A stretch of 64,000 bases of DNA from Alphaproteobacteria bacterium (GTDB lineage: Bacteria; Pseudomonadota; Alphaproteobacteria; UBA828). The DNA lies in assembly GCA_965214705.1 (NCBI GenBank), contig CBDCCI010000002.1:2048001-2112000 (forward strand). The letters are read 5' to 3'. The position numbers and the translations under genes were made by a program. Shown here piece after piece: positions 41,471 through 59,797 of this stretch (its first letter is position 1; every line of letters starts with the position of its first letter). Under the pieces are notes generated by a model. The model saw nothing but the letters and a program-made list of their open reading frames with translations. It was not told where the DNA came from and did no database searches.

Positions 41471-41601
41471 CCCAGAAGCCGATGCCGCCAGGGCGGCCGT
41501 GGAACGACGAAACGATCCACAAGTTATCGCGGTAGGGAACCGGGTTGCCCCGGTCCCCCCGCACAGATCCGGACGGGCGCTGTTCGCATCCGGCTCCTCC
41601 C

Positions 41602-43038
41602 TCAGGTCCTGACGACAAGCCGCTGGTTCGGCCACGGATGACGGATGCTGGCCTTGGGCCAGTGGGCAGCAGTGAGGGGATTGATATCCTCCCACGCGGT
41701 GCGGTCCCGTTGGGACCTTCGCCGCAGGGCACGCATGAGCAGCCGTTTGCATTGGTGCACGAACCGCACCAGATAGCGGCCGCTCCCGGGTACGCCGTAG
41801 TAGTTGAGCCAGCCGTCGATGACCCTTCCCAGCCACTTCGCTGTCTCGTGCCGGTTGTCGTGCCAGCGCTTGCGCAGCCTTTCCGCGATCCCCCGCAGAG
41901 TGCGGTTGACCCGTTTCCGGGATGGCCTGCGGCCGACCCTGAACCGTCCCTTCCTCGACTGGTCGCAGAAGTGCGTCATGCCAAGGAAGTCGAACGTCTC
42001 CGGCTTGCCCTGCCCCCGTGTCCGGCGGTTCGCTTTCGCGTAGCGGCCGAATTCGATGAGCCGGGTCTTGCCCGGATGCAGTTCCAGTCCGTACTGGGCC
42101 AGCCTCTCGCCGAGGTCCCGGAGGAAACGCTTCGCGTCGCCCTCGTGCTGGAAGCCGCACACAAAATCATCGGCGTATCGCACGATGATTGTGTCGCCTC
42201 CTGCCGTCCGTTTGCGCCATGTGTTGTGGAACCAGTCGTCGAGCACGTAATGCAGGTAAACGTTGGCGAGGCAGGGTGAGATTATCCCACCCTGCGGAAC
42301 GCCCCTGCCGGTGTCCGTCCAGTCGGTCCCTTCCATGACGCCGGCGTTCAGCCACTTGACGATCAGCCGCATGACCCGCGTGTCTCCGATGCGCCTTTCG
42401 AGCATCCCGACCAGGTGGTCCCGCCCGAGATTGTCGAAGAACCCGCGGATGTCGGCGTCAACGACCCAGTTGACCTTCCGCCGTTCCATTCCAACCGCCA
42501 CGGCGTCGAGCGCGTTATGCGTCCCCCGCCCCGGCCGGAAGCCGTAGCTGAAGCCGAGGAACTCCGTCTCGTAGATCGGCACCAGAATCGTATCCGTCAC
42601 CGCCCGCTGGAGTATCTTGTCCTCCAGCGAGGCGATGCCGAGCGGTCGTTGTCCCCCGTCCTCTTTGGGTATGTAGACCCGCCGCGACGGCGGCGCCCGA
42701 TACGCCCCCCTGTGCACACGCCCGTGCAGGTCGACCAAGCGATCTTCCAGCCCGTCGGCGTATGCCTCCCACGTGACGCCGTCCACCCCCGCTGCCGCGT
42801 CCTTTCTCAGCGAATGGTACGCGTCGCGCAGGCAGTCAACCGTCACATGGTGGAGGAGCGCCACGAGACACTCATCCGGGTTCCTCTTTGCAGCCTGTCG
42901 TATCCGGTCGGCCGCCTGTGACTCGCTTCCCCGCTTCTGCGCGCGGCGCGAGCTTTGGCCTTTCGGATTGCCCTTGGGTCCGCCCCTTCGCTCCCCCGGC
43001 TCCGCCGGCCCCGAGGGGCCGTTGTTCGCCGGCTTCAT
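41602..43038 (-). CDS. ltrA: Group II intron reverse transcriptase/maturase (intron A1; first codons lie beyond intron B)
   Basis: RPLGI, PQGG, RYADD, FDFLG; no En domain. Confidence 0.92.
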   Translation of the reverse strand: MKPANNGPSGPAEPGERRGGPKGNPKGQSSRRAQKRGSESQAADRIRQAAKRNPDECLVALLHHVTVDCLRDAYHSLRKDAAAGVDGVTWEAYADGLEDRLVDLHGRVHRGAYRAPPSRRVYIPKEDGGQRPLGIASLEDKILQRAVTDTILVPIYETEFLGFSYGFRPGRGTHNALDAVAVGMERRKVNWVVDADIRGFFDNLGRDHLVGMLERRIGDTRVMRLIVKWLNAGVMEGTDWTDTGRGVPQGGIISPCLANVYLHYVLDDWFHNTWRKRTAGGDTIIVRYADDFVCGFQHEGDAKRFLRDLGERLAQYGLELHPGKTRLIEFGRYAKANRRTRGQGKPETFDFLGMTHFCDQSRKGRFRVGRRPSRKRVNRTLRGIAERLRKRWHDNRHETAKWLGRVIDGWLNYYGVPGSGRYLVRFVHQCKRLLMRALRRRSQRDRTAWEDINPLTAAHWPKASIRHPWPNQRLVVRT

Positions 43039-43131
43039 TGCTGTCGGGTCGGAGGAGGCGCCCCGCGAGGCTAGCCTCCGTCCGCCGCTCAAACGGCCCG
43101 TACGGTTTTCCCGTAAGCCGCTTTCACAAAG

Positions 43132-56287: not shown

Positions 56288-57300
56288 GAACGGGCTCGAC
56301 CCCCGCAGAATCCAGCACAATACTGTGCATCTGGGCCGTGTCTGGCATGGCTCGGGGGTGCGGCGTCGGCTGTTGCGATCAGGCAAACGGGGCCGGCGCC
56401 GCATCGTTCTCAGCGGCCCGAGTCTACCCCCGGCGATCTCGATGTCAGGTGCGCAACGCTGCCGACGGCAAGCCCGCCGGACCTCAAAATCGGCAGGTCG
56501 CCTGGCCCAGCTTCCACACGACCGGCCGAAGGCCTGTGGACAAGTGGACAGCCGCTCCGCGCCTGACCACTTCCCCACAGGCCCAACAGCAACAAGCGCT
56601 CAAATCAGTGCGGACAAAAAACCCGTCAACTACATCGCCACCAAAATCACGCGCCCTAAATGAGCGAATACGCGCGGGTCTAGACGGTCACCAACACCAT
56701 GGTCGTCAACCCGCTCCGGCGGGCCTACGACAAGGCAATCCGCAGCGCCGAACGCCGGCTCGCCCGCCTGCGCAACCGGATCGCCGGCGCGGCCAGGAAA
56801 AAGAGGCCGACGGCGCAGCTCAGGAGCGAGGTCAGGGACCTCGAGGGCGCCCTCGAGATCGCCAAGGCCAGCCGCAGGAACGTGCCGAAGCACTGTCGAG
56901 CCGGCGACCTCGACGAAGACCGACAGCTCGATGCCCTGCCCTCACGCGACCGTCTCCTCCTCGACGTCATCCGCATGATCGCCTACCGCGCCGAAACCCG
57001 CATGATGCTCCCCGTCATGCAGGGACAAGGCAAGAAGCCTCATCCCCGGAAACTGCTTCAGGCTCTCATGGCCGCCGATGCCGACGTCCTGCCGGACCCC
57101 GCCAACGGCGTTCTCCGGGTCCATATTCTCGGCCTCGCAAATGACGCCTGCGACCGCCAGATCGATGCCCTCCTGAACGAGCTCAACGCCACCGAAACCG
57201 TCTTCCCCGGGACCGAACTGCGCATGGTCTACGAGGTCGCCGCAGCTCCGGAATCCACGTAAACCGCGTCACCCCAAATCAGCAGAGGTCAGGAAGTCTG

Positions 57301-59209
57301 GTGCGCCAGGCAAACTGGTGGAATGTCGCCGGGTGGAAGTCCCGGCAGAAAGAGAGGTGAACCGACCACTTTCTCCGCGACCCATGCGCCGGTCGTCGCG
57401 AGGCGGCAGGCGAAGCGTTGGGAAGCGGCAGGCACGGGCCGGGCTATTGAGCCACGAAACCTGATTCAACCGGGGTGCCGAGGCTGTCAGATTAGCCGAA
57501 GGCAACACCCTGTGAGCCGTTTTGGTGAGGCGAGCAGGGGCTCTGCGGGGTCTAAGAACCATGGCACGTGCCGAAGCAGTCCACCGGGACCTGGGAGGTC
57601 TTCGAACTGCCCCGCGGTCGTGCGGGGCCGCTAAGGAAAGGAGCTATACCGCAACCCAATGATGTACGGTTCGAAGAAATCAGATTCGCCCATAGTAGCA
57701 ATGAAGCCGGCGAACAACGGCCCCTCGGGGCCGGCGGAGCCGGGGGAGCGAAGGGGCGGACCCAAGGGCAATCCGAAAGGCCAAAGCTCGCGCCGCGCGC
57801 AGAAGCGGGGAAGCGAGTCACAGGCGGCCGACCGGATACGACAGGCTGCAAAGAGGAACCCGGATGAGTGTCTCGTGGCGCTCCTCCACCATGTGACGGT
57901 TGACTGCCTGCGCGACGCGTACCATTCGCTGAGAAAGGACGCGGCAGCGGGGGTGGACGGCGTCACGTGGGAGGCATACGCCGACGGGCTGGAAGATCGC
58001 TTGGTCGACCTGCACGGGCGTGTGCACAGGGGGGCGTATCGGGCGCCGCCGTCGCGGCGGGTCTACATACCCAAAGAGGACGGGGGACAACGACCGCTCG
58101 GCATCGCCTCGCTGGAGGACAAGATACTCCAGCGGGCGGTGACGGATACGATTCTGGTGCCGATCTACGAGACGGAGTTCCTCGGCTTCAGCTACGGCTT
58201 CCGGCCGGGGCGGGGGACGCATAACGCGCTCGACGCCGTGGCGGTTGGAATGGAACGGCGGAAGGTCAACTGGGTCGTTGACGCCGACATCCGCGGGTTC
58301 TTCGACAATCTCGGGCGGGACCACCTGGTCGGGATGCTCGAAAGGCGCATCGGAGACACGCGGGTCATGCGGCTGATCGTCAAGTGGCTGAACGCCGGCG
58401 TCATGGAAGGGACCGACTGGACGGACACCGGCAGGGGCGTTCCGCAGGGTGGGATAATCTCACCCTGCCTCGCCAACGTTTACCTTACGTGCTCGACGAC
58501 TGGTTCCACAACACATGGCGCAAACGGACGGCAGGAGGCGACACAATCATCGTGCGATACGCCGATGATTTTGTGTGCGGCTTCCAGCACGAGGGCGACG
58601 CGAAGCGTTTCCTCCGGGACCTCGGCGAGAGGCTGGCCCAGTACGGACTGGAACTGCATCCGGGCAAGACCCGGCTCATCGAATTCGGCCGCTACGCGAA
58701 AGCGAACCGCCGGACACGGGGGCAGGGCAAGCCGGAGACGTTCGACTTCCTTGGCATGACGCACTTCTGCGACCAGTCGAGGAAGGGACGGTTCAGGGTC
58801 GGCCGCAGGCCATCCCGGAAACGGGTCAACCGCACTCTGCGGGGGATCGCGGAAAGGCTGCGCAAGCGCTGGCACGACAACCGGCACGAGACAGCGAAGT
58901 GGCTGGGAAGGGTCATCGACGGCTGGCTCAACTACTACGGCGTACCCGGGAGCGGCCGCTATCTGGTGCGGTTCGTGCACCAATGCAAACGGCTGCTCAT
59001 GCGTGCCCTGCGGCGAAGGTCCCAACGGGACCGCACCGCGTGGGAGGATATCAATCCCCTCACTGCTGCCCACTGGCCCAAGGCCAGCATCCGTCATCCG
59101 TGGCCGAACCAGCGGCTTGTCGTCAGGACCTGAGGGAGGAGCCGGATGCGAACAGCGCCCGTCCGGATCTGTGCGGGGGGACCGGGGCAACCCGGTTCCC
59201 TACCGCGAT
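57301..59209 (+). mobile_element. Group II intron A, copy 2
   Basis: 5' GTGCG, domain V GAGCCGGATGCG..CGCCCGTCCGGATC, 3' CGAT; EBS1 CAGATT (57488-93) pairs with exon AGTCTG. Confidence 0.92.
57659..59133 (+). pseudogene. ltrA: Intron A2 RT/maturase frameshifted by a 4-nt deletion near 58485
   Basis: TACCTTACG versus TACCTGCATTACG in copy 1. Confidence 0.85.
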
Positions 59210-59797
59210 AAGTTCAGCATCGCGCCCGGCGTTCGCGACCACCCTTGGGGATGATGGCTCTCCATCATCTCCCGCCACAAGCACTTGTCTGCAGAATCGC
59301 CGACCGGCTGCAGCGTCATCTCCTGTGGCGCAAGCAAGTGAAGCACAACCCACCGAAATCACTCAATACATTTCGGGCCAGACAATTAGAAGCCGGCAGC
59401 CCTTCTGAAGTGCATTTTGACGAGGTCCGGGCCCGATTGACCCGCTGTCTTTTCCGTATTAGCAGTAGGAACTCCTTTCCACCACCGTGGAAAGGTGAGA
59501 CGCGGCGAAACGTACAAGGGAATACACTATGCAAAGACCGGCCGCACGTCATGTTGCAACTTTCGCGGCGAACCTCGCAAAATTTGCCAGAGCGGTCGTC
59601 ATCGTCTCGCTAGCCGTCAGCACTTTCCCGAGCTTGCCGAATGCGGAAGGGGTGCCAATAGGGATGTACCCTTGCGAGGGTTCGTGCCCTCCCTAAACAG
59701 GATACAGTGTCGAGGCCTCCCGGACAGAGAGCAACTGAGAAAGCTCCAGTAGGTCCGCAAAGCTGCCGCTGTCGTAAACATCGTCAAGATCTCCATA

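Follow-up and report, generated by a model that had tools for sequence, protein, structure and literature searches.

How does a group II intron come to cap both ends of an insertion sequence (IS), with each copy lying outside the element and facing away from it? The question is raised by a 64,000-nucleotide stretch of DNA from an alphaproteobacterial genome (assembly GCA_965214705.1, contig CBDCCI010000002.1, positions 2,048,001 to 2,112,000; hereafter the window), in which positions 41521-59214 hold an IS with a PF21804 transposase between two copies of one group II intron, here termed intron A. A prediction made from the letters alone (hereafter the original prediction) had described this arrangement and proposed that the intron homes to the tip of the IS. 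We analyzed the window together with the rest of its own genome (three contigs, 7.9 Mb; C1 and C3 serve as contig labels below) and with related sequences from other genomes. The explanation we favor, at a probability of roughly 85%, is ordinary retrohoming of an endonuclease-less intron to the outer tip of the IS, guided by pairing between the exon-binding sites (EBS) of the intron and the intron-binding sites (IBS) of its 5' exon.

The 16-nt tip of the IS, GAGGTCAGGAAGTCTG, matched the window exactly twice, at 50295-50310 on the minus strand (left terminal inverted repeat, IR) and at 57285-57300 on the plus strand (right terminal IR), compared with a chance expectation of 0.04. Both tips were directly adjoined, with no gap, by the same intron of about 1.9 kb, for which they form the 5' exons with IBS2 (GTCAGG) and IBS1 (AGTCTG), and the coordinates originally given for the two insertion points proved correct. 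Intron A begins with GTGCG at 50294 (minus strand) and 57301 (plus strand) and ends with ...CTACCGCGAT at 41526 (minus strand) and 59209 (plus strand), the final bases being ...CGAT. These boundaries agree with those of group II introns (5' GUGYG, 3' AY) and were identical at all five 5' ends and all six 3' ends. The ribozyme domains of a mobile bacterial group II intron were found in both window copies, with RF02005 (group II D1-D4-6; gathering score 49) matching at 154.2 bits at 50035-50259 (minus) as well as at 57336-57560 (plus), while the RF00029 (D5/D6) match reached 34.2 bits, below the gathering score of 40, and ended at the mapped intron 3' end, 59209. Outside both introns the plus strand reads AAGTT (41521-41525 and 59210-59214), the target-site duplication of the IS, just as had been stated. 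The two copies are indeed the same intron, but not two whole ones: the right copy (57301-59209, plus strand, 1909 nt) is uninterrupted and lacks four nucleotides, while the left copy is split by 6.9 kb of nested elements into a 5' segment with positions 1-396 (50294 down to 49899, minus strand; D1-D3 and the start of the frame of the intron-encoded protein, IEP) and a 3' segment with positions 397-1913 (43042 down to 41526, minus strand; most of the IEP frame including reverse transcriptase and maturase with an intact YADD motif, as well as D5 and D6). The placement of intron A between the last base of the IS and the host duplication, facing outward at both ends, is real and its anatomy is clear.

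The element between the introns required more revision. Its ends and IRs are real, but the 7006-bp unit originally taken as one IS (50295-57300, plus strand) is a composite of a 2.5-kb IS in three pieces (50295-50772, 50936-52414 and 56691-57300) and two later insertions. The first of these is a 167-bp repeat resembling a miniature inverted-repeat transposable element (MITE) at 50771-50937, with about 30 further copies of at least 97% identity in the genome and another in the window at 24501-24667. The second is an IS21-family element of 4284 bp (52414-56697, minus strand) that encodes an IstA-like protein of 565 aa, a Toprim/DUF3991 protein and a 257-aa open reading frame without family, and that has three other copies in the genome. 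A BLAST search of the own genome gave a base IS of about 2.54 kb with four further copies on contig C3, and its 802-aa frame combines helix-turn-helix domains with PF21804 ("Transposase_29", 1.3e-105). NCBIfam assigned no IS family to this transposase at cut-off, with sub-threshold helix-turn-helix matches to IS630 and IS481, and the family was left unnamed. The features of an insertion sequence were all found, namely 16-bp IRs, 5-bp duplications (CATTT, AGGCT, ATGTT and AAGTT), a transposase and five full copies in the genome.

Tips without an intron fix the boundary of the IS. Copy b (C3:563094-565628) carries no intron and has CATTT directly at both tips, so the A at exon position +1 is target DNA and not the final base of the IS. 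In the same-genus genome G037, which has 245 IS tips and from which intron A is absent, ANNNT follows outward at all 13 distinct bare tips that were read, and the IS thus makes 5-bp duplications with a preference for ANNNT. As judged from copy b and these bare tips, the IS ends exactly at ...GTCTG. The same observations bear on the idea that the introns are part of a larger transposon with its true ends beyond them, or that the IS inserted between pre-existing introns. A 5-bp repeat outside the introns is what a 17.7-kb unit that moved as a whole would leave; however, the duplication lies directly at ...GTCTG in copy b and at the 13 tips of the sister genome, in copy a, described below, it adjoins the tip at the bare end and follows the intron at the opposite end, and the duplications fit the ANNNT preference of the IS itself. 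We therefore give this idea next to no weight.

Within the genome, the first 396 nt of intron A are present in five copies, every one of them directly after ...GGAAGTCTG, and these are distributed over three copies of the IS. Copy a (C3:23898-26441) has an intron at one end only, with AGGCT at the bare tip and, opposite, beyond the 3' end of the intron, while copy d (C3:2189360-2191903) and copy e, the one in the window, have introns at both ends, with ATGTT and AAGTT, respectively, outside both. Both ends are hence filled in two of the three intron-bearing IS copies. Copies a, d and e are three independent IS insertions, and in each the IS came first and the intron later. The 13-mer GTCAGGAAGTCTG, which spans IBS2 and IBS1, occurs 18 times in the 7.9 Mb, and all 18 occurrences are IS tips, five of them filled and 13 empty, the latter with A (nine), C (three) or G (one) at +1. 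Five of five 5' ends at tips, three independent insertions and 18 of 18 13-mers at tips uphold the original prediction that the intron homes to the tip and finds two sites per IS. Its claim of a variable 3' exon holds from +2 onward; +1 is A at all five sites because the IS duplicates ANNNT. Since the two IS ends share only the 16-bp IR, the sequence target amounts to at most 16 bases plus this A.

The flanks of these insertions also speak to a single origin of the junction, followed by copying through homologous recombination or gene conversion. Identity among the copies of intron A is 99.7-100% (BLAST, own genome), and recombination through a second group II intron, intron Z, is evident in a chimera on C1, where a sixth 3' part of intron A (positions 397-1909) lies at C1:1697994 (locus L005, C1:1694283-1699510) behind a copy of Z in unique DNA. 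A 1675-bp repeat with about 30 BLAST matches in the genome interrupts this Z copy in turn, the 3' flank of the intron A part, AGACT, happens to fit ANNNT, and the chimera is probably a rearrangement by recombination between Z copies. Conversion, however, needs homology on two sides, and the five sites have unrelated flanks, each with its own duplication exactly at the 3' end of the intron; a single origin is in our view very unlikely. An assembly artefact could be suspected of having produced the symmetry, as the genome is packed with near-identical repeats and the four-nucleotide gap of the right copy occurs in no public contig. Against this, the two window copies differ from each other, the left one carrying nested insertions and the right one the gap; the junction recurs at two further loci with different flanks, and in all four public runs short contigs connect the 16-nt tip with intron bases 1-396, their loose ends matching the other IS end. 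The contig of the tip junction has 16 letters on the IS side and that of the 3' junction 28 letters on the intron side; both fall short of a 31-letter rule and were not counted as bridging, and the runs may stem from the source sample. An artefact strikes us as extremely improbable.

The uninterrupted target site was not found in 21 same-genus genomes queried with the 826 bases left of the insertion; this flank belongs to a multi-copy family whose best matches (72-74%) all end about 78 bases before the insertion point. The cumulative range of GC skew on contig C3 was 1.05, too weak to place origin or terminus, and both strands are used at two loci.

How is so short a target read? In the right copy, EBS1 (CAGATT, 57488-57493, plus strand) is located in the terminal loop of a D1 hairpin according to the Rfam alignment and pairs with AGTCTG at exon positions -6 to -1 over all six positions (five Watson-Crick pairs and one G-U), in agreement with the pairing first proposed. 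A putative EBS2 (CCTGAT, 57460-57465, plus strand) would pair with GTCAGG at -13 to -8; it was placed by eye, CCUGAU lying in the same alignment block as the 8-bp EBS2-IBS2 match of homologue L012. EBS2 and EBS1 together would cover 12 of the last 13 IR bases read outward. The alignment took in 17 homologues from other genomes with a mappable 5' junction, and this comparison showed covariation of the EBS1-IBS1 pairing: across 18 homologues 91 of 108 positions pair, compared with 48.6 on average and at most 68 when the partners were shuffled 2000 times, two homologues scoring low only through a one-base offset of the loop in the alignment and two more needing a boundary shift. The candidate for EBS3 is the T at 57553 (plus strand), corresponding to U at intron position 253 in a conserved GUC-N-RAGA stretch, which could pair with the A at +1. 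In a set of 13 homologues, some of them close kin and three with uncertain 3' junctions, position 253 is complementary to +1 in 10, a number reached by 20 of 2000 label shuffles. A delta-delta' contact, in which the U just 5' of EBS1 pairs with +1, was dropped as a candidate, since in the relatives inspected by eye this base is T regardless of the one at +1.

Taken together, the following course of events can be proposed. The IS would insert first and its insertion would complete the target, consisting of the IR and the first base of the duplication, which is nearly always A. As the ANNNT duplication supplies this A, the complete target would be made only when the IS inserts, and it would then be present twice per IS, on opposite strands. 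EBS2 (CCUGAU) and EBS1 (CAGAUU) would engage GTCAGG and AGTCTG, the candidate EBS3 (U253) would engage the A, and the intron would land between the last IS base and the duplication, facing outward, leaving the IR whole and remaining outside the element. Retrohoming is the most likely mechanism by which this would occur.

Entry of the intron might instead be coupled to transposition itself, with reverse-splicing at the fresh junction of IS and target and with the 3'-OH at +5 of the opposite strand priming cDNA synthesis. After strand transfer each tip is joined beside a 5-nt single-stranded gap, the insertion point of the intron is the point of transposase cleavage and joining, the intron faces outward and its IEP is without an endonuclease domain, all of which would suit such a coupling; moreover, the youngest IS copies, a and d, have three of their four tips filled, while the diverged copies b and c as well as MITE-like derivatives have none. 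EBS-IBS pairing alone, however, accounts for position and orientation, copy a keeps one bare tip with A at +1, near-identical introns are found across IS copies that are 1-4% apart, suggesting invasion of resident copies, and primers from the replication fork are known to serve introns of this kind (PMC4615759). On balance we find coupling improbable. Similarly doubtful is a relay in which the intron hitch-hikes on transposition, with the 3'-OH at the gap standing in for an endonuclease cut, is shed as the IS moves on because it lies outside the IR, and is left at old sites. The original prediction had likewise let the IS leave and seed introns around the genome, which was not borne out: intron pairs or solo full introns without an IS were found nowhere in the own genome, and none of the five intron 5' ends lies away from the IS. 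Copies a and d, at 99.96% identity and both with open transposase frames, carry different numbers of introns, a pattern that fits, but does not prove, that new IS copies are born intron-free. The IS can probably still move.

The IEP of intron A, with about 492 aa, consists of RVT_1 (1.5e-34) and GIIM (1.8e-5) domains only, scores 339.9 bits with TIGR04416 (cut-off 300) and contains the YADD motif. Its best plasmid relatives are about 50-57% identical over the full length, with about 477 aa. PMC4615759 gives class D IEPs as about 419 aa in length with the C-terminal motif LX3AX3PXLF[V/A]HW, whereas the IEP of intron A is longer and has the C-terminus ...TAWEDINPLTAAHW..., in which only P..AHW agrees. 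Every assembled copy of the intron is affected in some way. Intron Z is inserted at position 396/397 in four of them (copy a, the left copies of d and e, and the rearranged copy on C1), the right intron of copy d is interrupted by an IS91-like element, and the right intron of the window has a shifted IEP frame, as it is without the TGCA that follows 58484 and is present in all other genomic copies. Contigs from all four public runs carry TGCA, and one of them runs across the Z site uninterrupted. Such contigs drop rare variants, and the gap may be a real frameshift or an assembly error. Removal of Z from the RNA would restore the uninterrupted sequence seen in the right intron of the window.

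Intron Z makes the left intron A a twintron and is itself the host of further elements. Its first 1939 nt (47960-49898, minus strand) start with the GTGTG 5' end at 49898 and encode an IEP of 439 aa, and its last 89 nt (Z positions 1936-2024) lie at 43043-43131 (minus strand). Between them, in Z, is an IS1634-family element (43128-47962, minus strand, with ends placed to within a few bases; full length 2.17 kb, second copy at 29485-31651), which in turn is split by an IS91-family element with a tyrosine-recombinase gene (45031-47701, plus strand; other copy at 36763-39434, inverted). Whole Z is 2024 nt long (as at L001:3838-5861), has the ends GTGTG...GAC and encodes an IEP that scores 383.8 bits with TIGR04416. 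An Rfam search gave no match to Z at E <= 0.01, and Z is called an intron because of its IEP, its GTGTG...AC ends and its 21 copies with exact common boundaries. All 21 mapped 5' ends in the genome follow ...YRTAGT with a 3' exon that begins with A, and about half of the copies interrupt the IEP frame of intron A or related introns within its first codons, again forming twintrons; in intron A, Z is located after ...CCCATAGT and before AGCAATG. Z was also seen at the same site in every copy of a second intron family (C1:791409-795529, C1:4025042-4037209, C3:1609608-1615235 and C3:2984179-2993820), which is about 71-74% identical to intron A and in which the 3' exon (TGCTCGCGCCCGC...) is fixed and the 5' exons end in ...GAGCGGA. 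From these flanks, that family is best described as ordinary homing into a repeated element.

Outside this genome, the closest relatives of the IEP are 84-89% identical and none of them lies beside this IS. The PF21804 transposase gave no tblastn hits in 77 loci of related introns from other genomes, many of which begin at contig ends. The original prediction had named homologues residing mostly at sites other than the IR as an outcome that would speak against it, and taken literally this is what was found; the claim itself nevertheless stands, as the 5' exons of the relatives differ from that of intron A and match their own EBS1, with which they covary. A same-genus intron, 72% identical to intron A, was found at diverse sites ending in ...GCTGGT in the five loci that were read, and not at IS tips. 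Judged by these junctions, tip homing appears as a property of the EBS set of intron A, seen so far in one genome. The alphaproteobacterial metagenome-assembled genome OZ220465.1 (loci L016-L033, L057 and L066) contains many copies of an intron that is 64% related, which occupy the linker between D5 and D6 of a different group II intron and form head-to-tail arrays with as many as three members; if an intron requires hardly anything besides its 5' exon, such arrays are to be expected.

Several of these results weigh against retrohoming guided by EBS-IBS pairing. The association of intron and tip was found in this genome only, and exact-pattern scans of metagenome contigs gave no match to the tip-intron junction, a result that indicates neither absence nor rarity. 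Of the 18 tips in the genome 13 are empty, nine of them with A at +1, so that homing is either far from saturating or requires more than the 17 named bases. The EBS3 call depends on 13 partly related sequences. Finally, the IEP frame is interrupted or shifted in every assembled copy of intron A, and present activity would need splicing of Z or the four-nucleotide gap to be an assembly error.

Homing to an IS tip is not as novel as the original prediction took it to be, as targeting of IS inverted repeats is already published for RmInt2, a class D intron of Sinorhizobium meliloti GR4 that resides within the inverted repeats of ISRm17, with two sites per IS on opposite strands (PMC4615759 and PMC5894124). 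For RmInt2, a U-A EBS3-IBS3 pair, head-to-tail copies and experimentally shown retrohoming are described in PMC4615759. As in that system, the intron of the window is without an endonuclease, finds the two IRs of an IS by one common 5' exon, has IBS1 and IBS2 in the IR, a U-A EBS3-IBS3 pair (a candidate in intron A) and a target that is common on the 5'-exon side only. The geometry of RmInt2 was derived from four copies located on NC_019848.2, which share the 5' exon TA..CTAGTGCCC.TCCATA with unrelated DNA before it and IS interior after the intron; downstream of the intron, the two copies at one end of the IS have 1.3 kb in common, and from the other end a copy leads back into that same IS body. 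This pattern of flanks places RmInt2 within the IS, 17-20 nt from its end and pointing inward. Its 5' exon is thus made up of the outermost 17-20 IS bases read inward, it splits the IR from the body and it would travel with the IS, whereas intron A has the IR read outward as 5' exon and host DNA as 3' exon, does not break up the IR and would be left behind. The insertion point of RmInt2 separates IR and IS body, that of intron A the last IS base and the duplication. The IEPs differ as well (419 aa and class D for RmInt2; about 492 aa and a C-terminus that does not match the class D motif for intron A). Intron A is a mirror-image form of the published RmInt2/ISRm17 strategy and not a new principle. 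A search of the literature outside subscription journals returned no description of this geometry, with a group II intron separating the tip of an IS from the duplication.

Other known systems share single features with intron A. RmInt1 in ISRm2011-2 and other introns in IS transposase genes are likewise retroelements in a mobile element that avoid host genes, but their fixed 5' and 3' exons lie in the transposase frame (a conserved RmInt1 site was observed), whereas the site of intron A is the junction of IS and host. Introns of class IIC read a stem-loop together with a short IBS1. Intron A, in contrast, would pair 12 bases through EBS1 and EBS2, uses no hairpin and belongs to the Rfam family D1-D4-6, while a target defined upstream and a variable 3' exon are common to it and to the class C introns behind terminators or attC sites (PMC1702495). 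The twintrons bear a different likeness, which concerns the nested intron Z, with its common site ...YRTAGT before A in the IEP frame, and not tip homing. Work on Methanosarcina has reportedly described group II twintrons and homing into the open reading frames of other introns.

A number of side observations were made on the IS and on the rest of the window. Two to three tandem copies of the last 75 bp of the IS, including the tip, are present at C3:523480-523570 as well as in G037 at locus L103 and at C8:179389-179554, and IS copies with such tandem end repeats have several nested right ends. The same IS tips also delimit elements of about 263-274 bp (C1:4118905-4119178, C3:590403-590665 and C3:3022297-3022559), which carry no introns and look like MITE-like derivatives of the PF21804 IS. 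The window has another group II intron at 18459-18603 (plus strand), which is of a different Rfam type (RF02003, 80.2 bits), and 19326-19572 matches one end of the IS1634-like element at 92% identity. Tandem repeats of 99-105 nt (33-35 codons) at 36444-36746 and 39425-40259 flank the IS91-like element of 36763-39434, and this element seems to have split a repeat-protein gene. A direct repeat of 1.5 kb with 97% identity (27422-28923 and 59798-61299) begins 0.6 kb to the right of the intron-capped IS.

Intron A at the tips of the PF21804 IS would be, besides RmInt2, a second natural and independent example of group II intron targeting to IS inverted repeats, in a geometry mirroring that of RmInt2 itself. 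With the intron outside the IR the end of the IS stays whole, and the homing site is made only through transposition. This raises the testable questions of how small a 3' exon suffices for an endonuclease-less intron, whether such introns can make use of transposition intermediates and whether an IS can spread intron targets without being disabled. The same-genus genome with its 245 empty tips offers a natural test bed, and a target as short and portable as 16 bp plus an A might serve tools of the targetron type. If the doubtful relay were true, every transposition would create intron targets and leave intron copies at old sites.

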